64,000 bases of DNA. Origin: Patescibacteria group bacterium (GTDB lineage: Bacteria; Patescibacteriota; Microgenomatia; Levybacterales; UBA12049). The stretch is taken from the NCBI GenBank assembly GCA_038064195.1, contig JBBTTO010000004.1, positions 2,357-66,356 on the forward strand, in the 5' to 3' direction. The notes under the pieces are model-generated. The model was not told the origin of the DNA. It ran no database searches and saw only the letters and a list, made by a program, of their open reading frames with translations. Below are positions 7,949 through 36,197 of the stretch, piece by piece. The position numbers and the translations under genes were made by a program. How positions within the stretch are numbered: the stretch's first letter is position 1; every line of letters starts with the position of its first letter.

Positions 7949-8027
7949 TTAAGTGTACACACTTTGCTCATTTGAGAAAAGGTGCGCAACCGTCTTTCTA
8001 TCAGGATTATAACAAACGAGGCTAAAA

Positions 8028-9302: not shown

Positions 9303-9303
9303 A

Positions 9304-10092
9304 ATGGAAGAAAGGAACTCTATGAAAGACAGTCAAGTAATGATCATCGGGCGCAACATGGTGCATGATGCTATAAAGTCGAATAAAACTATCCAAACAA
9401 TTTTCATTGGAAAAAATAGCAGGACAGACCCCCGTATTCAGGAGATACTTAAATTAGCCTATCAAAAAAATATTGAGATATCCTTCGTCGCGCCCGAAAA
9501 AATCAGAGCCATGAGCGGATCTGATGATACGCAAAATGTTATAGCCTATATGCAAAAATATGAAGGTGTCTCACTTCGTGAAGTTATCCAGGCCAAGATC
9601 GACTCAGGCAAAGATCCACTCATCATGCTCTTTAATCACATGGATTATGAGCAGAATTTGGGTGCGATCATCAGAAGTGCGTGGGGAGCTGAGGTGGATG
9701 CAGTTGTCCTCTCTCCGACAGGAGTTCATGAGGTAACACCGATTGTAGCCAAAGTCTCCCAAGGAGGAGCGGCTTATGTGCCGGTATTCTCGCTCTCACT
9801 TTTCCAGGCAATTGATATCATCAAAGACTTTGGCATACCGGTCGTTGGGGTTGAGGTAGGCATGGGAAAACCCTATGATGAGATCACACTTCTCGGCCCG
9901 GTTGCTTTTCTTTTCGGTGGGGAAGTGGCCGGTATCAGTAAGCCCCTGGAAAAACACTGCGATATTTTTATCCACATCCCGATCAATAATGAACTGGCAT
10001 CTCTTAATGTCAGCGTCGCAACGGCACTCATCATCTATGAGAAGCGCCGTCAGGAGAGAGCGGCAAAAAAGCTCCGGGAAAATCCTCAATAG
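9304..10092 (+). CDS. rlmB: TrmH/SpoU-family rRNA 2'-O-methyltransferase (RlmB-like)
   Basis: IGRNMVHDAIKS N-terminal domain; LFGGEVAGIS...NELASLNVSVATALIIYE SPOUT motifs. Confidence 0.8.
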   Translation: MEERNSMKDSQVMIIGRNMVHDAIKSNKTIQTIFIGKNSRTDPRIQEILKLAYQKNIEISFVAPEKIRAMSGSDDTQNVIAYMQKYEGVSLREVIQAKIDSGKDPLIMLFNHMDYEQNLGAIIRSAWGAEVDAVVLSPTGVHEVTPIVAKVSQGGAAYVPVFSLSLFQAIDIIKDFGIPVVGVEVGMGKPYDEITLLGPVAFLFGGEVAGISKPLEKHCDIFIHIPINNELASLNVSVATALIIYEKRRQERAAKKLRENPQ

Positions 10093-10108: not shown

Positions 10109-11212
10109 TTAAGGGGAGAGGAGGTCAATAAAGTTAGTGATAAATGACTTCTGTACTCCAACAACTTGTCCACTCTCAGCGGAAACAACCGCTTTAACCG
10201 GCTGAGTTACGGGGATAAATGCTAAGAACTTATATTCCTTTGTTCCATTCATCTCATAAACCGGGCTGCCATCAATAATTTGCAAGTCTACCTGCGTACC
10301 GGCACCCGAACTACCATCCGGAGTTGGCGTTGTAGATGTAGTATCAATTTGATCAACTATTTTTGTTGCTAAAAGAGCTTGAACGGCTTCATCAGGTAAG
10401 ATCGAAACAGCTTTACTTCCCGCAGCAGTCGTCACGATGAGCTGGTTAGTCCCTACATCAATAGAAAGAGGAAATTGGGTTGAGGCAACTACTCCATTTC
10501 GCCTGAGCGTTGGTTTACCGCTCTGGGAAGAAATTTCAATCCCTTCATCTTCCAACTCTTGTTCTGCTTCATTCTCCAGTTCTGATTGCTCGTCTTCATC
10601 AAGCTCAACTTCTGTACCATCCTCGTCTTCAATCTTTTTGACAACCTGTCCATTCACAACTTTATATTTAATTTTCAACTCGCCATGCTCTACCTCTATT
10701 TTTGTCGTTCCGTCATCTTCAACTTTTGTTTTGATTTTTTGACCATCAGATGTCTCAATTTCAGTCTCCTGTTTATTTTCCTCAATTTGCGTGTTGGTCT
10801 TAATAGTTCTGGTCGGAGTTACCACCCGTGATGAACCCCTATTTGAAGACTTGATGATAGAAGATTGAGCAGCGGATTTTTCTGCTTCTTTACGCTGTTC
10901 CTCAACTTTTTTCTCTCTTTCTTTTTGTTGTTCCTCAACTTTTTTCTCTTCCTCTTTTTTCTGCTCGTCTTTTTTATCTTCAGAACTATCGTCATCACCC
11001 AACACATATCCTGCTGCTCCGAGAACTTTTGTGGGGGAATCCAGACGTAACGCGGCTCTCTGAGAAAGAGTCTGAACGAGTGCTATCAGCAATAACGAAC
11101 TGAGGATAGCTCCCGAAACATAAACAATCCTTCCTGAGACAAAAAGCCCCTGAGGGTGTCTTTGAGTCTTTTTAATTGTAGAACTTCGCTTTTTGCTTTT
11201 TTTCCTACTCAT
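10109..11212 (-). CDS. hypothetical membrane-anchored protein with K/E-rich repeat region
   Basis: Basic N-terminus, one TM, EEEKKVEEQQKEREKK low-complexity repeats, C-terminal beta-rich domain. Confidence 0.55.
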   Translation of the reverse strand: MSRKKSKKRSSTIKKTQRHPQGLFVSGRIVYVSGAILSSLLLIALVQTLSQRAALRLDSPTKVLGAAGYVLGDDDSSEDKKDEQKKEEEKKVEEQQKEREKKVEEQRKEAEKSAAQSSIIKSSNRGSSRVVTPTRTIKTNTQIEENKQETEIETSDGQKIKTKVEDDGTTKIEVEHGELKIKYKVVNGQVVKKIEDEDGTEVELDEDEQSELENEAEQELEDEGIEISSQSGKPTLRRNGVVASTQFPLSIDVGTNQLIVTTAAGSKAVSILPDEAVQALLATKIVDQIDTTSTTPTPDGSSGAGTQVDLQIIDGSPVYEMNGTKEYKFLAFIPVTQPVKAVVSAESGQVVGVQKSFITNFIDLLSP

Positions 11213-11306
11213 TTATATAGTTCATCATGAATCATGTTGTTTGTCAATATCACTGGAGATTATTAGTCTTATTGACATACTTTCTAAAATCTGAGATTGT
11301 AAGGAC

Positions 11307-12047
11307 ATGGAAGACGAAAATCAACCGCCAACCGGAACTCCAACAGACTATGTACGACCTCCTGATGCTCAACCTGTAAAAAGCACAGACCTTGATGCTG
11401 ATCGCCCCCCAATAGGAAATACGGGAGGTGTTCATTTATTACCTGACTCACCAGCTGTGGCTTTTCCTACATCCGAAGAGCTCCGATCACTTTCAGCTCA
11501 AAAATCCCCTGACGCAACCCAGGTTACTCCTGAAGAAATAACGGCTCTTAATACGACTCCTGAGATACCTCCTATCCCACCAGAATCAACCCATACAGCA
11601 GCTATGCCCTCAGAACAGAGTATCGATCCGACCATTAAGCCCTTTGATCCTACTACTGCTGAAGCACCTAAGGACGACTATGAAGAGATACTTCCTAATG
11701 GAAGGGTTGCCGGGATACGAGAGTTGCTAGGACGTGTTCCTCAAGCAGTTAAAACTATAGATAACGAAATTGCTGATATCCAAGCATTTTTAAATGATCC
11801 GCGATTGAAAAAAGCTGAGGGGATGGGCTTAATTCAAATAATGCCATCGACAAATGAAAATGTATCTCAAGCAGCATTGTCTCTTATTGCAGAAAAATTA
11901 GCTGATATTAACGCGGGTATGGATAGCACTACTGCTGACCTCCTGCCACAAATTGATGCTGCTGTAGCCAACGCTTCAAGTCAGGTAGCTCAGTCTCCCA
12001 CTTCACCTTCGCAAATAGATCCAGCACCTCAAACTAAAAAAGTTTGA
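11307..12047 (+). CDS. hypothetical acidic Pro/Thr-rich protein
   Basis: 246-aa ORF with no TM and a disordered composition. Confidence 0.45.
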   Translation: MEDENQPPTGTPTDYVRPPDAQPVKSTDLDADRPPIGNTGGVHLLPDSPAVAFPTSEELRSLSAQKSPDATQVTPEEITALNTTPEIPPIPPESTHTAAMPSEQSIDPTIKPFDPTTAEAPKDDYEEILPNGRVAGIRELLGRVPQAVKTIDNEIADIQAFLNDPRLKKAEGMGLIQIMPSTNENVSQAALSLIAEKLADINAGMDSTTADLLPQIDAAVANASSQVAQSPTSPSQIDPAPQTKKV

Positions 12048-14818: not shown

Positions 14819-15345
14819 TGTGCTGAGAGGCTCGGTCTAGAATCTTCTTATCCTTATAGCATTGTATCATCTCCAGACTAAATGAGACAATATAAAAAGA
14901 GGTGTCTTATTTCCTATAATATCCCATAACAACACAACTGATAAATGATATATTTATAAAAGACAACGACAGAGCTTTATGTGTGGCAACAAGTATTTCT
15001 TCGATTTCTACAGTAGTCACCCACGCAAACATTTTCTTGTTATCAAGTCGTAATATCTTCGTGTAACCTGTTGTCTCAATAAGTCTATATGATCCTCGTT
15101 GAATAAATTGAACCACAGCAAAACTATATACCCTAATATTCTGTAAGGCATTGATTTTCGTCACTTCTAATCTTTGATATATATCACTGCATCCTGCCTT
15201 TTAAAGGAGTAAAAATAAGTCATGGAGATTGTATTGAAATCTTGGATGATCATTTTATCCACTCCAGTAGATCTGAGGGAGGAAAAGAATGTGAATTCCA
15301 TAATATTGCACAACATGATCTTGGAACGAAGGAGGTGATAATGCT

Positions 15346-15756
15346 ATGAATGATCTTTTACCAAGAAGCTTTTGGAGATTTCCGATAATTTCTTTTCCAT
15401 CGTTTATGGAAGACATCGAGGATCTCCTCCCAACATCAAATTTCTTAAACGGGTTATCTGTATTAGAAGACGATAAGAATGTCTATATTGAAGCATCAGT
15501 ACCAGGTCTTGACCCGAAAGAGGTAGATGTTACCTTTTCCAAAGGAGTGCTTACCATAAAAGGCGAGAAGAAGGAGGAAGAGAAAGGAAAGACGTTTCAC
15601 AGAAAAGCAACACGGTCTTTCTTCTATCGGGTAACACCAGGTGACGTTGACCCAAAGGCAGAGCCACAGGCAATATGTAAAAACGGAGTGATGACCGTAA
15701 CATTTGCAAAAGTGCATGAGGCAGAACCAAAAAAGATTGCAGTAAAAACTGCATGA
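15346..15756 (+). CDS. Hsp20/alpha-crystallin small heat-shock protein
   Basis: alpha-crystallin domain (VLEDDKNVYIEASVPGLDPKEVDV..GVLTIKGEK..NGVMTVTF); GGAGGTGA RBS. Confidence 0.85.
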   Translation: MNDLLPRSFWRFPIISFPSFMEDIEDLLPTSNFLNGLSVLEDDKNVYIEASVPGLDPKEVDVTFSKGVLTIKGEKKEEEKGKTFHRKATRSFFYRVTPGDVDPKAEPQAICKNGVMTVTFAKVHEAEPKKIAVKTA

Positions 15757-15878
15757 TTACAAAATGCGCTGGCAGGCTCGGGAAAAGGTAGGTGCGAAAA
15801 CGTGTCTACTGACAGTCTGCCAGCACAAAGAGCTTATCAAATTATTGTAAAAATACACTTGAAAGAAGGTGAGCATAC

Positions 15879-16283
15879 ATGAAGAAAATAAGTGTTACAA
15901 CAACAAAAGATAAAGAGGTTGTCGATATAACAGATGAGATAAATACGGTCCTTACAAAAAGCAAGACAAAAGATGGGCTTTGCCATTTATTCCTCCCTCA
16001 CTCAACAGCAGGCTTAACAACCGCGCTTATAAGTAGTGAGAATGAGCTTGATCTGATAGGCGTATTTGATATTGCTCTCCCACATATCACAAACCAACGA
16101 CATGAACATGAACATAGTCATATCATGAGCCGTTTACCCGATCATATTATTTCCTCTTTCCTTGGAACTTCTTTGGCAATTCCGATTAAAAATGGGGTAC
16201 TTGCCCTCGGAGAGTTTCAGCGAGTAGTACTGGTTGAGTTAAACGGACCGAGAAAACGTACTGTTATGTTGTATTACGATTGA
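15879..16283 (+). CDS. YjbQ/UPF0047 family protein
   Basis: HSTAGLTTALISSENE...GEFQRVVLVELNGP pattern typical of YjbQ. Confidence 0.65.
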   Translation: MKKISVTTTKDKEVVDITDEINTVLTKSKTKDGLCHLFLPHSTAGLTTALISSENELDLIGVFDIALPHITNQRHEHEHSHIMSRLPDHIISSFLGTSLAIPIKNGVLALGEFQRVVLVELNGPRKRTVMLYYD

Positions 16284-16295
16284 GAAAGAAGGATT

Positions 16296-17939
16296 ATGTA
16301 TTTTAAAGACAGAACAGAAGCAGGTCGGCTGCTTGCATACAAACTCAAAAAATATAGAGGTAAAGACGTTGTTGTTTATGCATTGCCAAGAGGTGGTGTT
16401 GTAACTGCGCTTGAAATAGCAAAGTATTTGGATGCTCCTTTAGATTTGATAATTACCCGAAAAATTGGCCACCCAGACAATCCCGAATATGCAATTGCAG
16501 CAACAGCTGAAAATGGACACCTTGTCGGGACTAAGGAAGAACTTGAGTCAGTTGATAAAGAATGGCTGAAAAAGGAAGTCTCAAAACAACGCCTTGAGGC
16601 AAGAAGAAGACGGGAACTCTATCTTGCTGGAAGAGCTGAAATCCAATCCCTTGGAAAAATAGCAATTCTCGTCGATGATGGTATCGCAACTGGGCTGACT
16701 ATGCGCAGCGGGATAAAAGAGCTCAAGCACAAAAAGCCCAAAAAAATTATTATCTCAGTCCCCATAATTCCCAAGACAACGGCCAGTATTCTAAATCAAG
16801 AAGCAAATGACGTAGTGGCGCTTGATATTCCTGAAGATTATGAATTCTTAGGTGCAGTAGGCGCGTACTATAGCGATTTTTCGCCAGTTGAAGATGAGGA
16901 GGTCATCGCAATGCTCAAGGCCTATGAAAAACAGAGAAAAGAACCAATTAAACAAAATCAGGCATTTTTCTCACAACCACTAATTGATCCTACACTCTTT
17001 ACCTTTCCCTCACATAGATACATGGTTGAGAAGTTAAAAGAAATACCCAATCTTACTATTGGAAAATTTTCCCTGGAGCGTTTCCCCAATAACGAACTCT
17101 ATATTATGCTGCATACACATGCAACTGAGCGAGAATGTATCGTTGTTGGATCAATTTCTCCTCCTGACACGAACTTGATTTCTTTCCTTCTCCTGTGCCA
17201 CACATTAAAAAAAGAGAATGCGCATAGTATAACAGCAGTACTTCCTTATCTTGCCTATTCTCGTCATGATAAAAAAGAGTATCAAAGAAGTTATGCGACT
17301 GTACTTATCGGCGAATTACTCAGTACGTCAGGGGCAGATCGTGTTGTCACTGTTGATGTCCATAGTCTGCATGTAAAGCAGCTTTTTCCAATTCCGTTGA
17401 TTTCACTCTCTCCAGCCAAATTATTTGCCGAAGAATTGAAAAAGTTAAACTTACAAAACGTAACAATTGTTGCGCCGGATGAAGGAGCAATAAAACGCGC
17501 TGAAGCGGTAAGAAGAGAGGCAGGAATCAAAAAAGAAATTGCGTATGTTGTAAAAAAACGGACAGCTGATGGAGTAAAACTGATAGAGCTTCATGGAAAA
17601 GTAAGTAAAACTGCAGTTATTGTCGATGATATTCTTGATACCGGTAAAACGCTTATTTCCTGTTGCGAAAAACTCAAGGAAAAAGGCGCTCGGGATATAT
17701 ATATCATGGTTACCCATGGACAATTTAACGGCATTGAATGGAAGCAATTATGGAAACTTGGGGTAAAACGCATGTACTGTACAGATACTATTCCTTTACC
17801 AAAACATGCCAAATCGAAAAATATTACCGTTGTTTCAATTATTCCTTTACTTGTCGATGAATTAAAAGAGGAAAACAAGGATATATTTACCGTTGATGCA
17901 AGTCAACGATACAGCTTTTATGATTATGATGAGCGATAG
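16296..17939 (+). CDS. fusion protein: type I phosphoribosyltransferase domain + ribose-phosphate pyrophosphokinase (PRPP synthetase) domain
   Basis: N-terminal half has PRTase motif ILVDDGIATGLTM; C-terminal half has Prs motifs NELYIML...AVLPYLAYSRHDKK and VIVDDILDTGKTL. Confidence 0.75.
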   Translation: MYFKDRTEAGRLLAYKLKKYRGKDVVVYALPRGGVVTALEIAKYLDAPLDLIITRKIGHPDNPEYAIAATAENGHLVGTKEELESVDKEWLKKEVSKQRLEARRRRELYLAGRAEIQSLGKIAILVDDGIATGLTMRSGIKELKHKKPKKIIISVPIIPKTTASILNQEANDVVALDIPEDYEFLGAVGAYYSDFSPVEDEEVIAMLKAYEKQRKEPIKQNQAFFSQPLIDPTLFTFPSHRYMVEKLKEIPNLTIGKFSLERFPNNELYIMLHTHATERECIVVGSISPPDTNLISFLLLCHTLKKENAHSITAVLPYLAYSRHDKKEYQRSYATVLIGELLSTSGADRVVTVDVHSLHVKQLFPIPLISLSPAKLFAEELKKLNLQNVTIVAPDEGAIKRAEAVRREAGIKKEIAYVVKKRTADGVKLIELHGKVSKTAVIVDDILDTGKTLISCCEKLKEKGARDIYIMVTHGQFNGIEWKQLWKLGVKRMYCTDTIPLPKHAKSKNITVVSIIPLLVDELKEENKDIFTVDASQRYSFYDYDER

Positions 17940-17944
17940 AAACT

Positions 17945-18583
17945 ATGGAAAATTTAGTACGCATAAAAATCAACAGTATAACACTTGAAGGGATGTTGGC
18001 TATTCCTAAAAATGCAAAAGGAATTGTGCTTTTTGCGCATGGAAGCGGCAGCAGTAGATTATCTCCGCGCAATAATTTTGTCGCAACTGTTTTACAGAAG
18101 GCAGGGATTGGAACATTGCTCATAGATTTACTCACAGAACAAGAAGATGAGATATACCAAACCCGTTTTGACATCGACCTCTTAACTGATCGTCTCGTTA
18201 CCATAATAGAATGGCTTAACAAAAATTCTGACACGAAGCATCTATCTCTAGGGCTTTTTGGAGCAAGTACGGGTGCTGCATCTGCATTAAAGGTAGCGGC
18301 AAAACTTGGAAAAAAGATAAAAGCAGTCGTGTCCCGGGGTGGACGTCCTGATCTGGCAATGGATGTATTAGATAAAGTTACCTCACCTACTCTTCTTATT
18401 GTTGGAGGTAATGATTTCGGTGTTATTGAGCTTAATGAACAAGCATTTCAGGTATTAGGATCCACAAAAAAGCTAGAGATTGTTGAGGGAGCCACCCATT
18501 TATTTGAAGAAGAGGGGGCTTTAGCAGAGGTAGCACATCTTGCAACAAGTTGGTTTAAGAAGTATTTACCTAAACAAATTTAA
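17945..18583 (+). CDS. dienelactone-hydrolase-like alpha/beta hydrolase
   Basis: GIVLFAHGSGSS and nucleophile elbow FGASTGA. Confidence 0.7.
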   Translation: MENLVRIKINSITLEGMLAIPKNAKGIVLFAHGSGSSRLSPRNNFVATVLQKAGIGTLLIDLLTEQEDEIYQTRFDIDLLTDRLVTIIEWLNKNSDTKHLSLGLFGASTGAASALKVAAKLGKKIKAVVSRGGRPDLAMDVLDKVTSPTLLIVGGNDFGVIELNEQAFQVLGSTKKLEIVEGATHLFEEEGALAEVAHLATSWFKKYLPKQI

Positions 18584-18588
18584 AGATT

Positions 18589-19590
18589 ATGAAATTAGTC
18601 TTAGTTGGTGATGTCATGTTGGGTCGATTAGTTAATGAAGAACTAAAAAGAGAAAGTCCTAAGTTGCCTTGGGGAGATACATTGCCAATCTTTAAAAATG
18701 CGGATCTGAGAATTTGCAATTTGGAATGTGTTTTGTCAGATGTAGGAGAACCTTGGCCCAACAAAACTTTTCATTTTAGAACTGATGAGAAAAATATTCA
18801 GACGCTTCTGGCAGCAGAAATTGGCATGGTTTCGCTTGCCAATAATCATGCACTTGACTATGGCCATGAAGCACTGCTTCGCATGATGAAAATTTTAGGT
18901 GAAAATGCCATTAATTATGCTGGCATCGGACCAAATTTTTTAGAAGCAGCTGAGCCAGCAATCTGTCGTGTTAATTCTCAAAAAGTAGGGCTTCTTGCAT
19001 TTACCGATAATGAGCCTGACTGGGAGGCAAAAGAAAATAAGCCAGGATTATTTTACGTACCAATTGACCCCGATTCAATCGGGGTTGATGCAAGAGACAA
19101 GAGAGCGCAATATCTTTTTGAGCTAATTCAAAAAACCCGTGATGACGTTGATCTTCTTATAGTATCAGCACACTGGGGACCAAATTGGGGATATTCCCCC
19201 CCAAAGGAGCATATCGCCTTCGCTCACCTTCTTATTGACTCTGGTGCCGATATTATCTTTGGTCATTCTCCTCATGTCTTCCGGGGTATTGAGCTCTATA
19301 AAGACAAACCAATTTTCTATAGTTGCGGGAATTTTATCGACGATTACGCCGTAGATGAAATCGAGAGAAATGATGAGTCTTTCGTTTTTCTTCTTGAGAC
19401 AAAAAAGAGTGGAGTAACAAAACTCCAACTATATCCAACGCTCATCGCAAATTTTCAGGCGAAAAAAGCTCATTCTGAGGATGCAAGACGCATTGGCCTG
19501 CTTATGCAAAAACTCTCAAGTGAACTTGGAACACCTTCGCAGTGGAACAGAGCAAAAGAAATGTTAGAGATACAGATGACTATGAATTAA
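18589..19590 (+). CDS. CapA-family metallophosphoesterase (PGA_cap)
   Basis: LVGDVMLGR N-terminus and LANNHALDYG motif. Confidence 0.8.
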   Translation: MKLVLVGDVMLGRLVNEELKRESPKLPWGDTLPIFKNADLRICNLECVLSDVGEPWPNKTFHFRTDEKNIQTLLAAEIGMVSLANNHALDYGHEALLRMMKILGENAINYAGIGPNFLEAAEPAICRVNSQKVGLLAFTDNEPDWEAKENKPGLFYVPIDPDSIGVDARDKRAQYLFELIQKTRDDVDLLIVSAHWGPNWGYSPPKEHIAFAHLLIDSGADIIFGHSPHVFRGIELYKDKPIFYSCGNFIDDYAVDEIERNDESFVFLLETKKSGVTKLQLYPTLIANFQAKKAHSEDARRIGLLMQKLSSELGTPSQWNRAKEMLEIQMTMN

Positions 19591-19607
19591 GGAATTAACA
19601 GAAGCCC

Positions 19608-21047
19608 ATGGAAATAACACATCATATAAAACAAATAAACAATACGCTCTGGAAAGTCCCGGTCTCATTTCTTGACGGAATGCAGGTGCCGGTCTTCTTC
19701 TTTTTGGATGAAAAGACTCTCGATGATGTTTTGAAAACAGAGCTCGTTGACTACTTAGCAACGATTGCCACACTCCCGGGTATAAAACAAGCGGTTATAG
19801 CTTTGCCAAACTTGAGCCGAACAGATGGTGTTCCAAGCGGGGTGGTTATTGCATCAGATGCAATTGATGGATTTATTTTCCCAGCAGCAGTTGGTTATGA
19901 TATCAACTGTGGAGTCAGGATTTTACGAGCTGATTGCACAGAGGATGAGATAAAATCATCTACCCTAAAACTAGCAAGTCAACTCTTTCGCGAGATTCAT
20001 TCCACCATTGGCCATACACCTTCAATCAAGATTGGCACGGATAAGCTTGATAAGGTCTTACAGGAAGGGGCACATCGTCTCATCAAGGATGGTTTTGGAG
20101 AGGAAGTTGATTCCCATTATGTAGAATCGTTTGGCGTGCTTGAAAATGCAGATCCGCAAGCAATTTCTCAACATGCCAAGAAGAAAGGACGCGAACAGCT
20201 GGGTACATTAGGAGACGGAAGCCACTTTATCCAAATTGACAAGATAACTGAGATTTTCGATGAAGATGCAGCAAATGCATATAACATAAACAAGGGCCAA
20301 CTGATTATTCTTATTCATTCAGACTCAAGAGATCTTGGCCATCAGGTAGCAATTGAAGAGATCCATAAGGTCAAAGAGGAAATGACAAGATACTATAAAG
20401 GATCGGTGCCTTTTGAACTCAGCGGTGTTCCTGTCTCTTCTTTGGAAGGACAGAGATGTTTCAATGCCATGGCTGCAGCTGCAAATTTTGCCTTTGCCAA
20501 CAGGCAAATACTAACACATGAGCTTCGAAAGATATGGAAAGATATTCTGGGTAAATCATGCGGGTCGCTTCACGTGCTTTATGACCATGCACATAATCTT
20601 GCCAAACTTGAGTCTCATATGATTGAAGGACGAAAAGAGAGGCTTTTAGTTCATCGCAGAGGTGCAACACGTGCATTTGGACCAGAATCTTCTGAACTCC
20701 CGGCTGATTATCAGCCAGTTGGACAACCTCTCGTGCTTCTTGGAGCAATGGGAACACCCTCATATCTTCTGAGAGGGTCAGGGCTTGAACAGACATTCGC
20801 TTCAAGTAGCCACGGAGTCGGAAGAGTCATATCATTTACTCGCGGAAGAAAAGATATACAGGGGTCAGTTACAGTAGAAAGTCTTACAACAAAAGGTGTT
20901 ACTGTAGAAGTAGAAACACTTGCAGACATAGGAGGAGATGATCCAAAAACATATAAAAACGTCAACTCAGCTCTTCATATTTTGCAAGCGTCGGGCATTG
21001 CGTATCCCGTTGCACGGCTAGAACCAATTGTCATCGATAAAGGATGA
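19608..21047 (+). CDS. rtcB: RNA-splicing ligase RtcB (paralog 1)
   Basis: GYDINCGVRIL, HRRGATRAF, GAMGT.SY and SSHGVGR motifs. Confidence 0.9.
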   Translation: MEITHHIKQINNTLWKVPVSFLDGMQVPVFFFLDEKTLDDVLKTELVDYLATIATLPGIKQAVIALPNLSRTDGVPSGVVIASDAIDGFIFPAAVGYDINCGVRILRADCTEDEIKSSTLKLASQLFREIHSTIGHTPSIKIGTDKLDKVLQEGAHRLIKDGFGEEVDSHYVESFGVLENADPQAISQHAKKKGREQLGTLGDGSHFIQIDKITEIFDEDAANAYNINKGQLIILIHSDSRDLGHQVAIEEIHKVKEEMTRYYKGSVPFELSGVPVSSLEGQRCFNAMAAAANFAFANRQILTHELRKIWKDILGKSCGSLHVLYDHAHNLAKLESHMIEGRKERLLVHRRGATRAFGPESSELPADYQPVGQPLVLLGAMGTPSYLLRGSGLEQTFASSSHGVGRVISFTRGRKDIQGSVTVESLTTKGVTVEVETLADIGGDDPKTYKNVNSALHILQASGIAYPVARLEPIVIDKG

Positions 21048-21921
21048 GGGATTGGAGAAAAGTATGGATTATTTAATATTATTCATCTCAATACTCTTTT
21101 TTGTACAAATACTTATTCCTTTTGTGCAAAAAAGTCTTCTTTGGCGAAGACGACAATCTTTAATACGCACGCTTGAGCAAAAGAGGAAATCCAGAGTGAT
21201 TACACTGATTCATAGACAAGAGACATTGAGTCTCCTTGGAATTCCAATAACACGCTATATTGATATCGAAGATTCTGAGCAAGTTCTCAATGCGATACGC
21301 ATGACTCCACCCCACAAGGCGATCGACATAATTCTTCATACGCCCGGGGGGCTCGTTCTGGCAGCAGAGCAAATTGCATTCGCATTGAAGCTGCATGAGG
21401 GAAAGATAAGGGTCATTGTTCCACACTATGCTATGTCCGGGGGGACAATGATAGCCTTGGCTTCGGACAAGATCATTATGAGTCGTGCTGCTGCTTTAGG
21501 GTCGCTCGATCCCGTGCTTGGAAGTCCAGGCATAGGATATTACCCTGCGGCTTCTATTGTTCATGCCCTAAGCGTTCCCAATAGAAATCGAGAGGATACA
21601 ACCTTAATTTTGGGAGATATAGCTAAAAAAGGGTTAGATCAAATATATAAGTCTGTTTTTAAATTACTAAGTAAGCATTTTGATGAAAAAAAAGCGTCGT
21701 CACTGGCCTTCACCTTGACACAAGGGAGATGGACGCATGACCATCCGCTTTTTTTCGAACAAGTTAAAGATTTGGGATTACCTGTTACAGACAATGTTCC
21801 TAACGAAATTTATGAACTTATGCAACTTTACTCTCAGCCAACACGGATGAGAGGTGGGGTTGAGTTTATTCCCTCACCCTATGTAGCTCCCGCCCAAAAA
21901 CCAAAGGAGAAGAAAGAATGA
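21028..21921 (+). CDS. membrane-anchored Clp-fold serine protease (SDH/S49-like)
   Basis: N-terminal TM; ILHTPGGLVLAAEQIA...HYAMSGGTMIALASDKIIM..LGSLDP motifs. Confidence 0.6.
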   Translation: MSSIKDEGLEKSMDYLILFISILFFVQILIPFVQKSLLWRRRQSLIRTLEQKRKSRVITLIHRQETLSLLGIPITRYIDIEDSEQVLNAIRMTPPHKAIDIILHTPGGLVLAAEQIAFALKLHEGKIRVIVPHYAMSGGTMIALASDKIIMSRAAALGSLDPVLGSPGIGYYPAASIVHALSVPNRNREDTTLILGDIAKKGLDQIYKSVFKLLSKHFDEKKASSLAFTLTQGRWTHDHPLFFEQVKDLGLPVTDNVPNEIYELMQLYSQPTRMRGGVEFIPSPYVAPAQKPKEKKE

Positions 21922-22334
21922 AAACATTTACGATTATTCCACATACCGCAGATGTACGATTGAGGATTGAGGCAGACTCGCTTGAGAAACTTTTTGTAAG
22001 CTCCCTGAAGGGTATGAATAGAATATTGAATAAGGAATATGAGAAATACCTAGATAAGCATCCTATTCTCGAGGAGGTTTCTGTGACATCTTATGACAAA
22101 ACATCACTTTTGATTGATTTTCTCTCTGAAATTTTGACACGTTCTCATATGCATAAAGCAATTTTTCATACCATTGACCATTTCGGGATAGAAGGTAACT
22201 CTCTTCATGCCCATCTATTAGGAGCACCGGTGGATAAATTTACAGAAGACATAAAAGCTGTTACTTACCATGAGGCAGAGGTTAAAAAAAATGACAAAGG
22301 CGAATATGAGACAACTATTGTGTTTGATATTTGA
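21918..22334 (+). CDS. archease (RtcB activator)
   Basis: MKTFTIIPHTADVRLRIEADSLEKLF N-terminus and 138-aa size; 4-nt overlaps with both neighbours. Confidence 0.7.
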   Translation: MKTFTIIPHTADVRLRIEADSLEKLFVSSLKGMNRILNKEYEKYLDKHPILEEVSVTSYDKTSLLIDFLSEILTRSHMHKAIFHTIDHFGIEGNSLHAHLLGAPVDKFTEDIKAVTYHEAEVKKNDKGEYETTIVFDI

Positions 22335-22378
22335 TTTCAGAATACTCGAAAAACTCATCGAATCAGACTGAATATATT

Positions 22379-23827
22379 ATGAGTATCGATAAAAGCAATT
22401 TCAAAAAAATAAATGCTTATACCTGGCAGATACCTCAAACATTTAGAAGTGATATGCGTGTGCCGGCAATAATTTTCGCTAGCGAGAAGATGCTTGACGA
22501 CATTTTACAAGATAGGTCAATAGAACAACTTATCAATGTCACAACGCTTCCAGGTATCCGTAAGGCAGCACTTGTGATGCCTGACGCGCATGAAGGGTAC
22601 GGATTCCCAATTGGAGGTGTTGCTGCAACAAGCTTCCCAAATGGTGCTATTTCTCCAGGCGGTATTGGCTATGATATCAACTGCGGAGTCAAACTGCTTA
22701 AATCAGACCTCGAGGCATCCTCGCTCAATCACCACCAGGGGTTGCTTGCTAGAAGATTGTACGAGGAAATTCCATCTGGCGTTGGGCATGGTGGAAGACT
22801 GACATTGATTGAAAAACGGCTCGATGAGGTATTGGTAAAAGGAGCAGCATGGATAGTTGATAACGGATATGGGGAAAAGGAAGACATCCATTTTATTGAA
22901 TCTGAAGGATGTTTAGACAATGCTGATCCACAAGCTGTCTCAGATCACGCCAAAAAAAGAGGCAAAGATCAGTTGGGAACACTGGGTGCCGGAAATCACT
23001 TTGTTGAGGTTGATGTTATTGATGAAATTTTTGATGAGACTATTGCATCTACTTTTGGTTTGTCTCTCAATCAAGTCGTGGTACTCATCCATACAGGCTC
23101 CCGGGGACTTGGCCATCAAGTCGCAACCGATTATATCCGTATCATGAATCAATCCATGACAAAATACGGTATTAATGTTCCTGATCGAGAACTTGCCTGC
23201 GCTCCCTTATCTTCTCCTGAAGGAACAGCTTACTTCAATGCGATGGCTGCTAGTGCCAACTTTGCCTTTGCAAATAGAGAGTTGATAGCGTGGGAGGTCA
23301 GAAAAGTGTTTAAGGAAATGTTTGGAGAAAGACTCTCAACGCTTTATGACGTTGCTCACAATATCGCTAAAATTGAAGAGCATGTCATTAATGAAAAAAA
23401 ACGAAGCAGAAAAAAAGTAATTGTTCACAGAAAAGGTGCAACACGTGCATTTGGGCCAAATAGTCCTGAACTTATCGACGAATATAGTCTAACCGGTCAA
23501 CCAGTACTGATCCCGGGAAGTATGGGAACAGCATCATATGTTCTTGCGGGAACTACAGAGGCAATGGAGTTATCGTTTGGATCATGTTGCCATGGAGCAG
23601 GGAGAACATTATCCCGCCATGCTGCCAAAGCACAGATTTCAGGGAAAAAATTAAAGATAGATTTAGAAGAACAAGGAATATTTATTCAGGCCGGGTCAAT
23701 TTCAGACCTTGCTGAAGAAGCACCACTGGCCTACAAGAACATCCATGATGTTGTAGATGTCGTTGATAAAGTAGGGATTGCGAAAAAGGTTGCCAGGCTG
23801 AGACCTGCTGTTGTGGTCAAAGGGTAG
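22379..23827 (+). CDS. rtcB: RNA-splicing ligase RtcB (paralog 2)
   Basis: GYDINCGVKLL, HRKGATRAFGP and SCCHGAGR motifs; ORF-track start 22331 is TTG, first ATG at 22379. Confidence 0.9.
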   Translation: MSIDKSNFKKINAYTWQIPQTFRSDMRVPAIIFASEKMLDDILQDRSIEQLINVTTLPGIRKAALVMPDAHEGYGFPIGGVAATSFPNGAISPGGIGYDINCGVKLLKSDLEASSLNHHQGLLARRLYEEIPSGVGHGGRLTLIEKRLDEVLVKGAAWIVDNGYGEKEDIHFIESEGCLDNADPQAVSDHAKKRGKDQLGTLGAGNHFVEVDVIDEIFDETIASTFGLSLNQVVVLIHTGSRGLGHQVATDYIRIMNQSMTKYGINVPDRELACAPLSSPEGTAYFNAMAASANFAFANRELIAWEVRKVFKEMFGERLSTLYDVAHNIAKIEEHVINEKKRSRKKVIVHRKGATRAFGPNSPELIDEYSLTGQPVLIPGSMGTASYVLAGTTEAMELSFGSCCHGAGRTLSRHAAKAQISGKKLKIDLEEQGIFIQAGSISDLAEEAPLAYKNIHDVVDVVDKVGIAKKVARLRPAVVVKG

Positions 23828-23881
23828 TATGAGGAATCAGAACCATCAACCAACGCAGTATAAAAATTACAAGTAGGAAAT

Positions 23882-24115
23882 ATGGGGAAAGCTAAACAAA
23901 TACAAAAATATCTGCCTTATGTTCCTTTGTGGGAGTTAGAGATAGAAGAGCTTACTGGTCATAATATAGAAATGCAAGGAAGGCAGGATGTAAATAAGCT
24001 GCTCAAAGCGGGGTGGATTTTGCTACATATTTACACGCTTCGTTATCAAGAAGACGGGGTATGGAGGGAGCGGCCAATGGCAATCTTAGGAAAACCAAAA
24101 AGGGGCAAACGTTAA
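23882..24115 (+). CDS. small hypothetical protein
   Basis: 77-aa ORF with AGGAAA RBS 4 nt upstream. Confidence 0.35.
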   Translation: MGKAKQIQKYLPYVPLWELEIEELTGHNIEMQGRQDVNKLLKAGWILLHIYTLRYQEDGVWRERPMAILGKPKRGKR

Positions 24116-24223
24116 TTTTATATTTAAACGTCTTAGAGCTTCTCCTGTATACGATGGATTAATTCTCAATCTTTAAAAGACTGGAAAAAATCTGTGACCT
24201 AAATCACTTTCATTCTTTGATTA

Positions 24224-24706
24224 TTGTCAATGCGAAATACCCTCTTCCTAACGTATTATATTATTATGCATTTTACAATTACGACAAAGCTATTCCATAT
24301 TTCAGATAAAGACTGTCAGTATATAGAAAAACTAGTAAAAAAACTTTTGCAGCTCACACCTTGGAAGGAACCAGACTACCCGCTTCTTGACATACTCCTC
24401 CGAAAGCACAGGAAGAAAAGCCTTGATCATATTGAAAAAAGGCTTATTTTGGAAGGTGCTATACAACCCAAACACGGACACGAAACAATTGATAATCCTG
24501 TATATTATGACGGCACTTTAGATCTTATTCTTCCAAAGAAACGTATTGTGGCAAATATGCTGGGTAAAACAGTACATGAGGCTCTCAAAGATGGGTTTGA
24601 CGAGTTGTTCCTGGAACTTGATAAGTATAAGGGACTACATTTTGCTAATGACAGCGAGTATTACAACCATAGGACAATTCGACAAAATAGGAAAGAAATC
24701 TTATGA
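24224..24706 (+). CDS. hypothetical protein, translationally coupled to the eRF1-like gene
   Basis: 160-aa ORF; its stop overlaps the next ATG (ATGA). Confidence 0.45.
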   Translation: MSMRNTLFLTYYIIMHFTITTKLFHISDKDCQYIEKLVKKLLQLTPWKEPDYPLLDILLRKHRKKSLDHIEKRLILEGAIQPKHGHETIDNPVYYDGTLDLILPKKRIVANMLGKTVHEALKDGFDELFLELDKYKGLHFANDSEYYNHRTIRQNRKEIL

Positions 24707-25164
24707 AAACGATGCAAAAACATAACAAATATTTAGTACTTCTAGTAGATAGAAAACGTGCTCGAATGTTTACCATGAGTAATGGCGTTGTTGAGGCAGA
24801 TGAAGAGCTGATCATTAATGACGTTCCGCAGAAGGTAAAGCACGGCGATGATACTTGGGATGCACAGAATAAAATCTTTCGCCATATCGAAGATCATTTA
24901 CACCGACACTTAACGCTTATTGCCCAAAATACGGCTTCTTACGCTAAGAAAAATAATATAAACAGAGTAATAATTGGAAGTCACAAACCGTTATTTTCAA
25001 AAATCAAAAAACATCTTCCCTATCCGCTTAATAAAAAAGTAGAAGGAACATTTGTTACAGAGCTTAAAGCACCGTTTGGTGAGATAGTCAAGCGGGCAAA
25101 AAATTGCATTGAAAGAGTTGAGGGTAGCGAGGAGGTAAAAAGATATGAAAAATACTTTGCTTAG
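24703..25164 (+). CDS. Host_attach / bacterial eRF1-like (baeRF) family protein
   Basis: YLVLLVDRKRARMF N-terminus and mid-region RHIEDHLHRHL...NRVIIGSH...IKKHLP pattern. Confidence 0.5.
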   Translation: MKTMQKHNKYLVLLVDRKRARMFTMSNGVVEADEELIINDVPQKVKHGDDTWDAQNKIFRHIEDHLHRHLTLIAQNTASYAKKNNINRVIIGSHKPLFSKIKKHLPYPLNKKVEGTFVTELKAPFGEIVKRAKNCIERVEGSEEVKRYEKYFA

Positions 25165-25528
25165 AATAGATACTATTCTTTTTTGGTTACCAAAAATTCT
25201 TGCAATATTATTTATAGGCTTTCTTGCTATCTTTGCATTTGATGTTTTTGAACCACGGGAATCTATTGTGTATGTGATCGGAGCATTTCTTATCCACCTT
25301 ATTCCAAATTTTATTCTCGCAATACTATTGTTTATCGCTTGGAAAAAAGAAAAGCTGGGAGGAGCACTTTTTATACTACTCGCGTTCGTCTTTACAATCT
25401 ATTTCCGAACCTACACACACTTCGTAAACTTTTTACTAGTCTCCTTCCCTGTATTTTTAATTGGAGCATTATTTCTCTTGCATACATATCTGATTGAAAA
25501 AAGGGGAGGAATATATGAAAAAGATTAG
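25145..25528 (+). CDS. hypothetical membrane protein
   Basis: 127 aa with four hydrophobic segments. Confidence 0.5.
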   Translation: MKNTLLRIDTILFWLPKILAILFIGFLAIFAFDVFEPRESIVYVIGAFLIHLIPNFILAILLFIAWKKEKLGGALFILLAFVFTIYFRTYTHFVNFLLVSFPVFLIGALFLLHTYLIEKRGGIYEKD

Positions 25529-25599: not shown

Positions 25600-25673
25600 T
25601 GGCTGCGGGACATGGATTCGAACCATGGTAAACGGATCCAAAGTCCGTTGTCCTACCTTTAGACGATCCCGCA
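25600..25673 (-). tRNA. tRNA-Gln (anticodon UUG)
   Basis: cloverleaf with U1-A72, anticodon loop CUUUGGA, T-arm CATGG-TTCGAAT-CCATG, 3' GCCA. Confidence 0.85.
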
Positions 25674-25676
25674 AAG

Positions 25677-25916
25677 TTATTTGAGCCTTCGATTAAGATA
25701 AGCTCTTCCAAAACCAGTTTTCAGCTGTTTTTCTCTGTTAATTGCAGCTGATTTCTTCAGACATGCTTCGTAATAAACAAGAGCAAAAGGTATTCTTAGT
25801 CTAGTCGAGCTGACATTCCCTAAATTATGCTCATTTATCCGAGAAACCAAGTCATCAGTCCAACCAATGTATAATTCATTATCCTTTTTACTCTTCAATA
25901 CGTATGTATAAAACAT
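25677..25916 (-). CDS. GIY-YIG nuclease family protein
   Basis: MFYTYVLKS..ELYIGWTDDLVSRINEHN GIY-YIG core; start taken at the internal ATG with AAAGG RBS. Confidence 0.7.
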   Translation of the reverse strand: MFYTYVLKSKKDNELYIGWTDDLVSRINEHNLGNVSSTRLRIPFALVYYEACLKKSAAINREKQLKTGFGRAYLNRRLK

Positions 25917-25934
25917 ACCTTTAGACGACCCGCC
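25916..25934 (-). repeat. duplicated 5' fragment of tRNA-Gln
   Basis: GCGGGTCGTCTAAAGGTA matches tRNA-Gln 5' end GCGGGATCGTCTAAAGGTA at 18/19. Confidence 0.6.
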
Positions 25935-26293
25935 TGCAGCGCTATGCAAGCGAAGCGCACCATTGCGAGCAGGTCCCGCAGTGTACCCAATATTGTAGCA
26001 TACAATAGCCTCAAAATGGAGGTTTTTAGGTATTATGGAGATCAAGTGGCTCATAAATCCACCCCATAGTTTGACCTTGATATCCCTTTTTGTTATTATC
26101 TCCCCACTCAAGATAAGTATTGATGGGCAATTGCGTTCATTTTTTGCTACTTGAGTATATTTTACATATTTCGCTCGTTTACATATTCAGTTGTTTGTAA
26201 TTAGTTCTTCAAGCTGCATCCACGAGGTCTCTCCTAAGGCTTGGTGGGTGCAGCTTGCACCGGGGTAACTTCGTCGTATCCAGGAGGATAAAC

Positions 26294-26827
26294 ATGACAC
26301 GCAGATCCAAGCCCGGTGAGAGTCAGTCTCCAACCGAAACTACGAGTCAGGATGTGGTGGAAACGCCCACAAAATCCGAGGACGACAAGGTCGCTCGTCC
26401 AAGGAGTGTAACTCACTACCGATGCTCTTTCTGCAATAAAGGCCAGGAAGAGGTCCGGCGTCTCATCGCCGGCCCGAATCGGGTCTACATCTGCGACGAA
26501 TGTGTGCAGCTCTGCCGCGAGATTATCGAAGAGGAGGAACCCGCAAAAGCGGTCATTCAAGATGCCCGCCGGCGTGCGCAGCAGAACGTGGAGAGCCTCA
26601 AAACCACACAACGTCTCCTGAGCGCTGCTCAAACCCTGCTGGAACCCGCATCGATGAATGACGGATTCGTTTCCGACGAGCTGCGTAAGCAGCTTGAGAC
26701 ACAATGCGTCCAGGCCATCCAGAAGGCCGGCGCTAGCTTCGGCCTGAAGTTGGTTCCCGTCGAAGACGCAACTCCGACAGCGGACGAGGCGGGCAGCCAG
26801 AATGGCATCGACGATACCACGGAGTAA
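26294..26827 (+). CDS. stand-alone ClpX-type C4 zinc-finger (ZBD) domain protein
   Basis: [31 protein letters not shown] almost identical in pattern to the ClpX N-terminal ZBD; AGGAGG RBS; ~60% GC. Confidence 0.7.
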
Positions 26828-29115: not shown

Positions 29116-29187
29116 GCGGGGGTAGTTCAGCGATAGAACGCTTCCTTGCCAAGGAAGAGGTCGCGGGTTTGATTCCCGTTCCCCGCT
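29116..29187 (+). tRNA. tRNA-Gly (anticodon GCC)
   Basis: acceptor GCGGGGG/TCCCCGC, anticodon loop TTGCCAA, T-loop TTTGATT. Confidence 0.85.
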
Positions 29188-29229
29188 CATAATCAGTTCT
29201 CCCACAAAATGTCTTAAGGACACAACTCT

Positions 29230-29302
29230 GCTGAGGTAGCCAAGGTGGTCAAGGCACCTGTCTGAAGAACAGGCCATGTCAGTTCGACTCTGACCCTCAG
29301 CA
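29230..29302 (+). tRNA. tRNA-Phe (anticodon GAA)
   Basis: acceptor GCTGAGG/CCTCAGC, anticodon loop CTGAAGA, T-arm GTCAG-TTCGACT-CTGAC; unusual 3-bp D-stem. Confidence 0.7.
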
Positions 29303-29329
29303 CCCGCTACCCGCTACCCGCTACCCGCT
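29302..29329. repeat. tandem heptamer (ACCCGCT) x4, same unit as at 5305
   Basis: acccgct repeated four times starting at the tRNA-Phe discriminator base. Confidence 0.85.
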
Positions 29330-29346
29330 TATGATATGATAGAGTC

Positions 29347-29607
29347 ATGAGCATACAGGATATCTTTTATTCTCTCGGGATTTTCTTCATGGTACTCGGG
29401 ATCACAATCCTGGTTATGATCATCGCCCTCCTCTGGACCATCAAACAAAAGATAACCTTTATCCATGATCTGGTTGAAAGACAAGTCATCAGACTTACCG
29501 GGAACTCAACCGATGTAGCCATGGAGCTGGGATCTAAAGTCGCCTCAGCCGCTGTTCGAAGAGTGAGAGACGCAATCACGAAGAAAAAGGAAGACTCCTC
29601 AATATAG
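29347..29607 (+). CDS. small hypothetical membrane protein
   Basis: 86 aa with one N-terminal TM and a basic C-terminus. Confidence 0.4.
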   Translation: MSIQDIFYSLGIFFMVLGITILVMIIALLWTIKQKITFIHDLVERQVIRLTGNSTDVAMELGSKVASAAVRRVRDAITKKKEDSSI

Positions 29608-29697
29608 CCTTTTTACGAAAATACTGACCCCTACTTTCCTAAATGTATCTTTTCTCTTATAATGAGCAGACAAATATTGCCTATAGAAGCTACGAAA

Positions 29698-29780
29698 TGC
29701 GGATGTGGTGAAATGGTATACACGCTGGCTTCAGGTGCCAGTGCCCGCAAGGGTGTGGAGGTTCAACTCCTCTCATCCGC
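29698..29780 (+). tRNA. tRNA-Leu (anticodon CAG)
   Basis: long variable arm; anticodon loop TTCAGGT; acceptor GCGGATG/CATCCGC. Confidence 0.85.
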
Positions 29781-29837
29781 ACATAGACCTACTGTAGATA
29801 GTTTCGTAGAGCGTAATTTGGTATAATCGGTGAACTC

Positions 29838-29923
29838 GCGGATGTGGTGAAATGGTATACACGCTACCTTGAGGTGGTAGTGCCCGCAAGGGTGTGGAGG
29901 TTCAACTCCTCTCATCCGCACCA
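29838..29923 (+). tRNA. tRNA-Leu (anticodon GAG)
   Basis: near-identical to the previous Leu apart from anticodon stem-loop TTGAGGT; encoded CCA; TGgTATAAT promoter upstream. Confidence 0.85.
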
Positions 29924-29997
29924 GGGCGATTAGCTCAGCTGGCTAGAGCGCTTCATTTACACTGAAGATGTCGGGGGTTCAAATCCCTCATCGCCCA
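29924..29997 (+). tRNA. tRNA-Val (anticodon UAC)
   Basis: GGGCGAT acceptor, anticodon loop TTTACAC, begins directly after the Leu CCA. Confidence 0.85.
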
Positions 29998-30059
29998 CAT
30001 TTCTTTCTCTCCTCTTGCTTGACAACAAAATGAGAATTTGACATGATGGATGATACTCC

Positions 30060-31613: not shown

Positions 31614-31696
31614 GCCCAGGTGGTGAAATGGTAGACACGATAGGTTTAGGACCTATTGCTCGTAAGAGTATGGGGGTTCAAGTCCTCTCCTGGGCA
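31614..31696 (+). tRNA. tRNA-Leu (anticodon UAG)
   Basis: acceptor GCCCAGG/CCTGGGC, anticodon loop TTTAGGA, long variable arm. Confidence 0.85.
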
Positions 31697-31700
31697 CAAT

Positions 31701-36012: not shown

Positions 36013-36094
36013 AGTAAGATATTATATCACACCCTATAATATTTATTGCTGGGTTGTGTGTGATTCAAGAATTTGCTAAAATGAACGAGGATTT

Positions 36095-36168: not shown

Positions 36169-36197
36169 CCCAAAGTACGCTGTGCTATCATAGTTTT

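Follow-up and report, generated by a model that had tools for sequence, protein, structure and literature searches.

RtcB RNA ligases occur in different genetic settings. In the archease-RtcB operon of Pyrococcus horikoshii and Thermus thermophilus the archease gene lies directly upstream of a canonical RtcB gene; in Escherichia coli the ligase belongs to the rtcBA/RtcR system, controlled by the sigma-54 activator RtcR; in the RtcB2-PrfH ribosome-rescue module it is linked to a release-factor-type protein. Several RtcB genes per genome, with divergent ligation and capping activities, are described for Myxococcus xanthus (RtcB1-3). The DosR regulon of Mycobacterium tuberculosis (block Rv2623-Rv2631, Rv0571c, HspX) includes universal stress proteins, the membrane protease Rip3, an RtcB (Rv2631), an alpha-crystallin and, as Rv0571c, a putative phosphoribosyltransferase (PMC5309233). 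The DNA analyzed here, called the window, is a stretch of 64,000 nt from a member of the Patescibacteria (assembly GCA_038064195.1, contig JBBTTO010000004.1, positions 2,357-66,356, forward strand). Four successive genes on its plus strand encode a divergent RtcB (RtcB-A), a membrane-anchored serine protease of the SDH family with a Clp fold, an archease and a canonical RtcB (RtcB-B). The region appears, on balance, to be an archease-RtcB RNA repair/splicing operon elaborated in a lineage-specific way, placed inside a conserved stress island of Patescibacteria. The component families and the archease-RtcB core operon are already known; apparently new are a subclade of archease-linked SDH proteases, found at five loci, and an RtcB paralogue lacking Asp65 and kept under selection.

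As in the archease-RtcB operon, in the window archease is directly upstream of a canonical RtcB, with all catalytic residues and the functional residues of archease present, and both RtcBs are close to the P. horikoshii enzyme (PhoRtcB; TM score 0.96 for RtcB-A). Unlike that operon, the window features a membrane-anchored Clp-fold protease gene overlapping the archease start, and an upstream second RtcB devoid of Asp65, within a stress island of about 13 genes. The E. coli system resembles the locus in that its RtcB ligase belongs to a repair setting inducible by stress, but lacks archease, and model NF007153 scores far under its cutoff in the window. Pfam scanning of every open reading frame (ORF) in the interval 15346-25528 revealed neither RtcA cyclase nor RtcR, and membership of rtcBA/rtcR was rejected on this ground. 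The link to a release-factor-type protein is shared with the RtcB2-PrfH module, as a baeRF_family10 gene lies three genes downstream in the window; its product is, however, of the archaeo-eukaryotic eRF1 type, not PrfH. No PrfH was found, the two window RtcBs scored 109.6 and 162.7 bits with TIGR03073 (release_rtcB; cutoff 271.8), and this assignment was rejected as well. A preliminary description of the locus, made from the letters of the sequence, had set it apart from both the rtcBA/rtcR and the plain archease-rtcB layouts, and rightly so.

Islands of the candidate phyla radiation (CPR) share with the DosR regulon HSP20, phosphoribosyltransferase (PRTase), dienelactone hydrolase (DLH), RtcB and baeRF10 genes, and relatives of the window also Usp, CBS and M50-CBS protease genes. 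The phylum is different, the window has Crp/Fnr-like boxes rather than DosR control, and its protease is of the SDH Clp-fold and not of the M50 type; the resemblance is one of parts list only. The Myxococcus paralogues, compared by description from a review, parallel the presence of several RtcBs in one genome; in the window, RtcB-A lacks Asp65 and part of the guanine pocket. Unlike ClpP, SppA and NfeD (PH1510-N, STOPP), the window protease belongs to a separate, experimentally uncharacterised family (SDH, PF01972), and has no stomatin partner.

The four ORFs are present where the preliminary description had placed them, and its domain calls (two RtcBs, a Clp-fold SDH protease, an archease) agree with Pfam and NCBIfam profile searches: the interval 21028-21921 matches PF01972 at 350.9 bits, and 21918-22334 Archease PF01951 at 93 bits. 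Translational coupling, with overlaps of 20, 4 and 4 nt at the three junctions, had also been proposed. It can be kept for the SDH/archease junction only, where stop and start overlap by 4 nt (ATGA); this is the sole robust overlap of the three, and recurs in relatives. The other two overlaps arose because the longest ORFs were taken. The true protease start is most likely ATG 21064, which is preceded, 6 nt before, by GGAG (21054-21057); the 285-aa product corresponds exactly to the NCBI record MEK7605914.1, and homologues measure 283-289 aa. RtcB-A and protease genes are then separated by 16 nt, and overlap by 20 nt only if TTG 21028 is used. For RtcB-B the most likely start is ATG 22379, as homologues align from residue 17 of the longest ORF; the product measures 482 aa, as in the NCBI record, and the spacer from archease 44 nt. 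The sequences on record come from a Patescibacteria metagenome-assembled genome, on a contig of up to 1.08 Mb. Nor are the four genes a self-contained operon, as had been described, being a segment of the same-strand island of about 13 genes.

The island backbone is found in relatives, and the full order is rare among them, as emerged from the survey of related genomes that the preliminary description had called for. At one related locus (L001) the order PRTase, DLH, PGA_cap, RtcB-A, SDH, archease, RtcB is the same, RtcB-A and SDH being 71% and 79% identical to those of the window. In L138 the same backbone is present, PGA_cap is followed directly by archease-RtcB, and both RtcB-A and SDH are missing. 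The order is PRTase, DLH, archease, RtcB, 128-aa ORF, baeRF10 in L136 (Levybacteria, GCA_001782195.1), and DLH, PGA_cap, archease, RtcB in L091 and L092. Relatives usually lack RtcB-A and SDH, and from the backbones of L138, L136, L091 and L092 these two genes can therefore be viewed as additions to a conserved island. SDH is found without RtcB-A in L083 (DLH, SDH, archease, LigT, RtcB) and in L132 and L133 (PGA_cap-SDH-archease); in L137 the archease is 71% identical and an unrelated ORF occupies the upstream position of SDH.

The protease matches SDH_protease (cutoff 31.3 bits) and the NCBIfam model Clp_like_SDH (NF047768; 360.3 bits, cutoff 250). It keeps the candidate Ser, Asp and His residues invariant in the family, features a ClpP-like fold, and is an intact Clp-fold serine protease of predicted activity. 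A single hydrophobic transmembrane helix spans residues ~3-22 at the N-terminus, and since a basic stretch follows it, the positive-inside rule predicts a catalytic domain located in the cytoplasm. Peptidase_S49 (PF01343; 16.3 bits, cutoff 24.9) and SppA_dom (TIGR00706; 36.8 bits, cutoff 155) both scored below threshold. Of the earlier wording, a membrane-anchored, SDH/S49-like Clp-fold protease, the SDH family, the fold and the one N-terminal helix stand, and the likeness to S49 is weak. The NCBI name of the protein (ATP-dependent Clp protease proteolytic subunit) is probably a misnomer, because the match to Pfam CLP_protease is marginal and partial (21.3 bits, cutoff 20.2, 71 residues). SDH proteases are widespread and slow-evolving (~57-63% identity across phyla); a literature search on the function of SDH/PF01972 gave nothing useful, and no experimental paper on the family was found.

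In a neighbour-joining tree the window protease falls into a subclade with P0121 (L001), P0151 (L083), P0143 (L132) and P0165 (L133), supported by 95/100 bootstraps. The five members share private substitutions, e.g. P147S beside the invariant G146, D149 and P150, and all five are encoded directly upstream of archease. P0143 and P0165 had been chosen from the SDH tree before their context was known, and only then was the order PGA_cap-SDH-archease found at both. SDH and archease overlap by 4-8 nt in the window, L001, L083 and L132, that is in all loci with both gene ends called; L133 is cut off shortly past the archease start, which tblastn places just after SDH. The flanks vary around the pair, with either DLH or PGA_cap upstream, and LigT inserted downstream. 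The subclade has thus stayed directly ahead of archease while its proteins diverged by ~40% and the flanking genes changed, and the ratio of nonsynonymous to synonymous substitution rates (dN/dS) of SDH, computed against L001, is ~0.1, like that of RtcB-A. The conserved gene order at five loci is the support for a putative coupling of RNA repair to proteolysis.

The protease might alternatively be a passenger, a housekeeping SDH inserted once between PGA_cap/DLH and archease, and since then inherited with no tie to RNA repair. In other species, RtcB and archease were absent from within 6 kb of SDH at all 80 loci examined, and any given neighbouring family recurs at 6 of these loci at most; a family-wide SDH-RtcB association was rejected on this basis. 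These 80 loci fit a passenger gene well, as do the single origin of the five linked SDHs and the lack of SDH in close relatives encoding 64-71% identical archeases. We nonetheless regard this explanation as somewhat unlikely. Adjacency and stop/start overlap have persisted over ~40% protein divergence while flanking genes changed, insertions of LigT or RtcB-A nearby left SDH and archease adjacent, the private substitutions of the subclade lie next to invariant residues of the active-site region, and the low dN/dS argues in the same direction. A protein-turnover role of the protease, linked to what the island does in repair and rescue, is favoured with moderate confidence.

Archease and RtcB-B have all the sequence features of a GTP/Mn-dependent ligase of 3'-phosphate and 5'-OH ends and of its activator, and would by these features make a working ligase pair. 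The archease scores well above the PF01951 cutoff of 25 bits, and matches PDB entry 4n2p (E=2.3e-6). Three orthologues share D12, K113 and the C-terminal D137-I138 without variation; in human Archease the tip residues D51, K156, D178 and the C-terminal carboxylate bind metal or phosphate, and the two sets probably correspond, as matched by motif rather than by structural superposition. RtcB-B matches PF01139 with 561.8 bits over profile positions 1-426 of 426, and retains Asp95, Cys98, His203, His234, His329, the nucleophile His404, Asp65 and Asn202 (PhoRtcB numbering); it departs from consensus at 1 of the 139 near-invariant (≥95%) RtcB columns. At more than 30 related loci, all RtcBs encoded next to archease carry the motif PDxHEGYGFP[IV]GG. 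RtcB-B clusters, like its orthologue in L001, with RtcBs of Chloroflexi (P0042, P0071, P0119; 72-74% identity), outside the main Patescibacteria group, which suggests horizontal exchange of the canonical ligase. In L083 a LigT / 2H phosphoesterase of the 2',5' RNA ligase family, another RNA-end-processing accessory, is encoded at 9271-9795 between archease and RtcB; in L094 the RtcB following archease is split by ~1.5 kb in tblastn (9033-9335, 10845-12011), consistent with an intein-containing RtcB.

RtcB-A is 42% identical to RtcB-B. The preliminary description had presented them as two full-length paralogues with shared motifs, and GYDINCGV, HR[RK]GATRA and the C-terminal His motif are indeed found in both; the two proteins are not equivalent, however, as RtcB-A lacks Asp65, His67 and the GYGFPIGG loop, and departs at 50/139 near-invariant columns. 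The invariant PDxHxGYGFPIGG is changed to PNLSRTDGVPSGV in the window protein (D65N, H67S, G69T, Y70D in Pyrococcus numbering) and to PNLTRADGISSGM in the L001 orthologue. E206Q is found in both orthologues, N202S in the window only; further changes are G239D, P378L, S380A, C403S, A406V, R412F and E445-A447. Asp95, Cys98, His203, His234, His329, His404 and Lys480 are conserved in both, the metal ligands and His404 residing in the motifs GYDINCGV, GSHF, IHSDSR, HAHN and SHGVGR. In PhoRtcB, D65A and N202A abolish ligation and are not rescued by archease, and D65A is placed in one group with H404A, of mutations acting on the step in which the His-GMP bond forms; E206A, which alters a guanine contact, is inactive unless archease is present (PMC3973293). 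Asn202 contacts the 5'-OH nucleophile and the GTP phosphates. Tyr92 of human RTCB rotates on Archease binding, into a position where it would collide with the proposed 3' end of the RNA; on a constant numbering offset it would correspond to the Tyr of the GYG motif, replaced by Asp in RtcB-A. Asp65 is invariant in every RtcB examined except RtcB-A and P0017, a protein encoded at another related locus. Most likely RtcB-A has ceased to work as a standard self-guanylylating ligase, and it may be a pseudo-enzyme, an RNA-end binder or an enzyme of changed chemistry. The earlier suggestion that substrate specificity is split between two ligases is unlikely in that form, because Asp65, His67, the GYGFPIGG loop, Glu206 and Asn202 are missing from RtcB-A.

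RtcB-A is a maintained protein under purifying selection. Its ORF is intact in two genomes (478-479 aa, 71% identity), and dN/dS against L001 is 0.10-0.12, a rough value because dS is saturated. The AlphaFold2 model has the RtcB fold, with a mean predicted local distance difference test (pLDDT) score of 89.7 and the TM score quoted above, to PDB entry 4dwq (PhoRtcB-GMP). In a bootstrap tree of 40 taxa rooted on PhoRtcB, RtcB-A nests in the Patescibacteria RtcB group beside P0017; RtcB-B falls outside this set in 93/100 bootstraps, and the two window RtcBs pair in 0/100. A recent tandem duplication, one of the two origins of the RtcB pair that the preliminary description had left for a phylogeny to decide, was accordingly rejected. 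RtcB-A-like proteins form two 90% clusters only, among the 120 best matches in a database of 5.8 billion proteins; with 0/80 other-species SDH loci next to RtcB or archease, the arrangement is not a common, already annotated CPR operon, in line with what had been proposed. Neither an Asp65-less RtcB nor a protease partner of RtcB or archease was found in the literature searched, which left out Burroughs & Aravind 2016, and a search on RtcB in Patescibacteria found nothing.

A division of labour between two ligases, in which RtcB-A would ligate RNA/DNA or cap with full activity, using another substrate or nucleotide cofactor, is unlikely. Such an enzyme would account for the seven conserved residues from Asp95 to Lys480 in both orthologues, for the strong purifying selection and the confident RtcB fold; E206Q in the guanine pocket could alter base preference, and the varied ligation and capping activities of the Myxococcus paralogues offer an analogy. 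Against these stand the inactivity of PhoRtcB D65A even with archease, the near-universal presence of Asp65, and changes at 49 further near-invariant positions.

Loss of Asp65 is also seen in P0017, the RtcB of L002 (8001-9473), in which the motif reads PSVYEGYG (PSVYEGYGFPNGS), accompanied by GSENHR and CHNAGR. The L002 island has no adjacent archease, and encodes an M50-CBS membrane protease and baeRF10. Of the 24 invariant columns at which P0017 deviates, 13 are also changed in RtcB-A (hypergeometric P = 3.6e-4); most positions changed in both carry differing residues, in what looks like a parallel remodelling of one functional surface. Long-branch attraction may inflate the sister relationship of the two proteins. 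One could go further and take RtcB-A and, independently, P0017 as a new functional class of RtcB-fold proteins of Patescibacteria, which would have given up GTP-dependent self-guanylylation, kept the binuclear metal centre, and act as GTP-independent RNA-end hydrolases or sensors, a membrane protease nearby perhaps answering with proteolysis when broken RNA is sensed. Both lineages show overlapping changes, which affect Asp65, His67, Arg412 and part of the guanine pocket, and each Asp65-less RtcB has a membrane-protease gene nearby (SDH for RtcB-A, M50-CBS in L002); this class is decidedly unlikely all the same.

Very improbable is a function of the cluster as an anti-phage defence or toxin-response module, in which RNA repair would counteract ribotoxins and the protease serve as effector. 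RtcB systems have reportedly been proposed as an answer to RNA-targeting toxins, Burroughs and Aravind (2016) being said to hold this view, and the nearby release-factor homologue recalls RtcB2-PrfH. PADLOC found no match for the four genes and the small neighbouring ones, and only weak generic PRTase matches for 16296-17939, the result on which a defence system was rejected; the release_rtcB scores are under the cutoff, and the context, rather than a mobile or variable island, is one of stress and housekeeping genes whose synteny is conserved in several genomes. Decay of RtcB-A, as a duplicate without function on its way to a pseudogene, is hardly credible and was rejected: its long branch and the 50/139 near-invariant positions changed, versus 1 in RtcB-B, would suit decay, but the ORF is intact in two genomes, dN/dS is ~0.1 as in neighbouring genes, all metal ligands are kept and the model is a confident one (pLDDT 89.7).

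In the elaborated archease-RtcB operon that we favour, RtcB-B and archease would reseal RNAs broken during stress or recovery, the substrates being tRNA, rRNA or mRNA ends with 2',3'-cyclic or 3'-phosphate and 5'-OH. The protease would be made together with archease, its domain facing the cytoplasm, and act as a protein-turnover arm, for example by removing ligase/archease complexes that are damaged or at a dead end, or what stalled translation has produced; HSP20 and the release-factor homologue baeRF10 would act beside it. RtcB-A would be a neofunctionalised RNA-end-binding or metal-dependent accessory protein.

Several points weigh against this picture. The close relatives L134, L137 and L138 have the same island with no SDH, which is therefore dispensable; and because SDHs beyond the five-member subclade lack a link to RNA repair, the adjacency to archease may have been inherited with no functional coupling. 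The cytoplasmic facing of the protease domain has the positive-inside rule as its basis. None of the six metal and nucleophile residues is lost in RtcB-A, and Asn68 or the nearby Asp73 might stand in for Asp65, in which case the protein may still be active as a ligase. All trees were obtained by neighbour joining on simple distances, and the saturation of dS affects the dN/dS values of both genes. Co-transcription of the whole island is deduced from the short spacers; promoter and terminator scans did no better than chance.

The features of the island are listed in Table 1.

Table 1. Genes and candidate regulatory boxes of the island, in window coordinates.
Feature	Position	Strand	Evidence and relatives
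Two tandem Crp/Fnr-like boxes (TTGAY-N4-RTCAC)	15151-15164, 15174-15187	+	23 bp apart; upstream of HSP20, at island head
HSP20 small heat-shock protein, first gene of island	15346-15756	+	Pfam HSP20 51.3 bits; 85% identical to L001 copy
YjbQ/UPF0047 protein	15879-16283	+	Pfam UPF0047 88.7 bits; same place in L001, L083
PRTase fused to a phosphoribosyl pyrophosphate (PRPP)-synthetase-like module	16296-17939	+	Pfam Pribosyltran, Pribosyltran_N, Pribosyl_synth; kept in L001, L083, L138
Dienelactone-hydrolase-type alpha/beta hydrolase (DLH)	17945-18583	+	Pfam DLH 34.9 bits; 71-78% identity in L001, L083, L136, L138
PGA_cap (CapA-like) protein	18589-19590	+	Pfam PGA_cap 258.8 bits; directly before archease or SDH in relatives
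RtcB-A, divergent RtcB paralogue	19608-21047	+	Pfam RtcB 381.6 bits; MEK7605913.1 "RtcB family", 479 aa
SDH-family Clp-fold serine protease	21064-21921 (longest ORF from TTG 21028)	+	PF01972 350.9 bits; MEK7605914.1, 285 aa
Archease	21918-22334	+	Archease PF01951 93 bits
RtcB-B, canonical RtcB	22379-23827 (longest ORF from TTG 22331)	+	Pfam RtcB 561.8 bits; MEK7605916.1 "RtcB family", 482 aa
Conserved 77-aa protein, small island ORF	23882-24115	+	No Pfam match; 80% identical to 76-aa ORF of L002
Conserved 160-aa protein, upstream of baeRF10 in relatives	24224-24706	+	No Pfam match
baeRF_family10 (bacterial eRF1-like release-factor homologue), short form, 153 aa	24703-25164	+	Pfam PF18854 58 bits
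DUF7670 membrane protein, last gene of island	25145-25528	+	Pfam DUF7670 98.1 bits

Genes follow one another in the order HSP20, YjbQ, PRTase, DLH, PGA_cap, RtcB-A, SDH, archease, RtcB-B, two small ORFs, baeRF10 and DUF7670, and the island ends at a convergent tRNA-Gln gene (25600-25673, minus strand). Spacers of 5-17 nt join the genes from YjbQ to RtcB-A. Three matches to TTGAY-N4-RTCAC are found in the whole window (0.64 expected), two of them at the island head; the same arrangement of two boxes 23 bp apart is found upstream of HSP20 also in L002 (6750/6773) and L138 (1418/1441). Relatives encode a Crp-family regulator (cNMP_binding+HTH_Crp_2) beside the island, and none is encoded within the 64-kb window. 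The island is probably controlled by a Crp/Fnr-type regulator. The spacer between HSP20 and YjbQ may fold into a stable RNA hairpin (15765-15826; dG -37.9 kcal/mol, z -5.1), with no U-tract, and a comparable hairpin (z -2.7) is found in the L001 spacer; it could work as a transcript-processing or attenuation element, splitting HSP20 from later genes.

The 76-aa homologue of the first small ORF sits two genes downstream of the L002 RtcB. The second small ORF is 47% identical to the 128-aa ORF of L136 and 78% to a 141-aa ORF of L138, and is also homologous to the N-terminus of the L001 PCMT-domain protein. The baeRF_family10 protein of the window corresponds to the C-terminal half only of the L001 and L136 homologues, which measure 263-270 aa (residues 115-266 of the 270-aa L001 protein). 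In L138 an MBL-fold protein (7595-8320; Pfam Anti-Pycsar_Apyc1 / Lactamase_B_2) and a DUF3175 protein are encoded between RtcB and baeRF10.

The remainder of the window is ordinary housekeeping chromosome (trigger factor, ThrRS, IF3, PheRS, PBP1, RecG). Rfam and ARAGORN searches of the window gave intron-less tRNAs only, and therefore no obvious RtcB substrate is encoded nearby; seven tRNAs (Gly, Phe, Leu x3, Val x2), all intron-less, are clustered at 29116-29998, 31614-31697 and 36094-36172. An ORF with a GIY-YIG domain (25677-26111, minus strand) adjoins the tRNA-Gln gene; its true start is probably internal, because the domain covers the C-terminal 80 residues only of the longest ORF. A 190-aa ORF at 26255-26827 carries a ClpX-type C4 zinc finger (70.7 bits) and no AAA+ domain; it resides in a stretch of higher GC content (0.466), and is overlapped by an antisense ORF of similar length.

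If the link between SDH and archease is functional, it would provide the first contextual clue to the role of a widespread, uncharacterised Clp-fold family, and point to protein turnover as a component of RNA repair in bacteria. A new activity of RtcB-A, if there is one, would widen RtcB-fold chemistry. Should neither hold, the locus would amount to no more than an operon into which a protease gene was inserted and which carries a derived paralogue. The island itself may be viewed as a compact conserved set of stress/dormancy genes of Patescibacteria, bacteria whose stress physiology is largely unknown.

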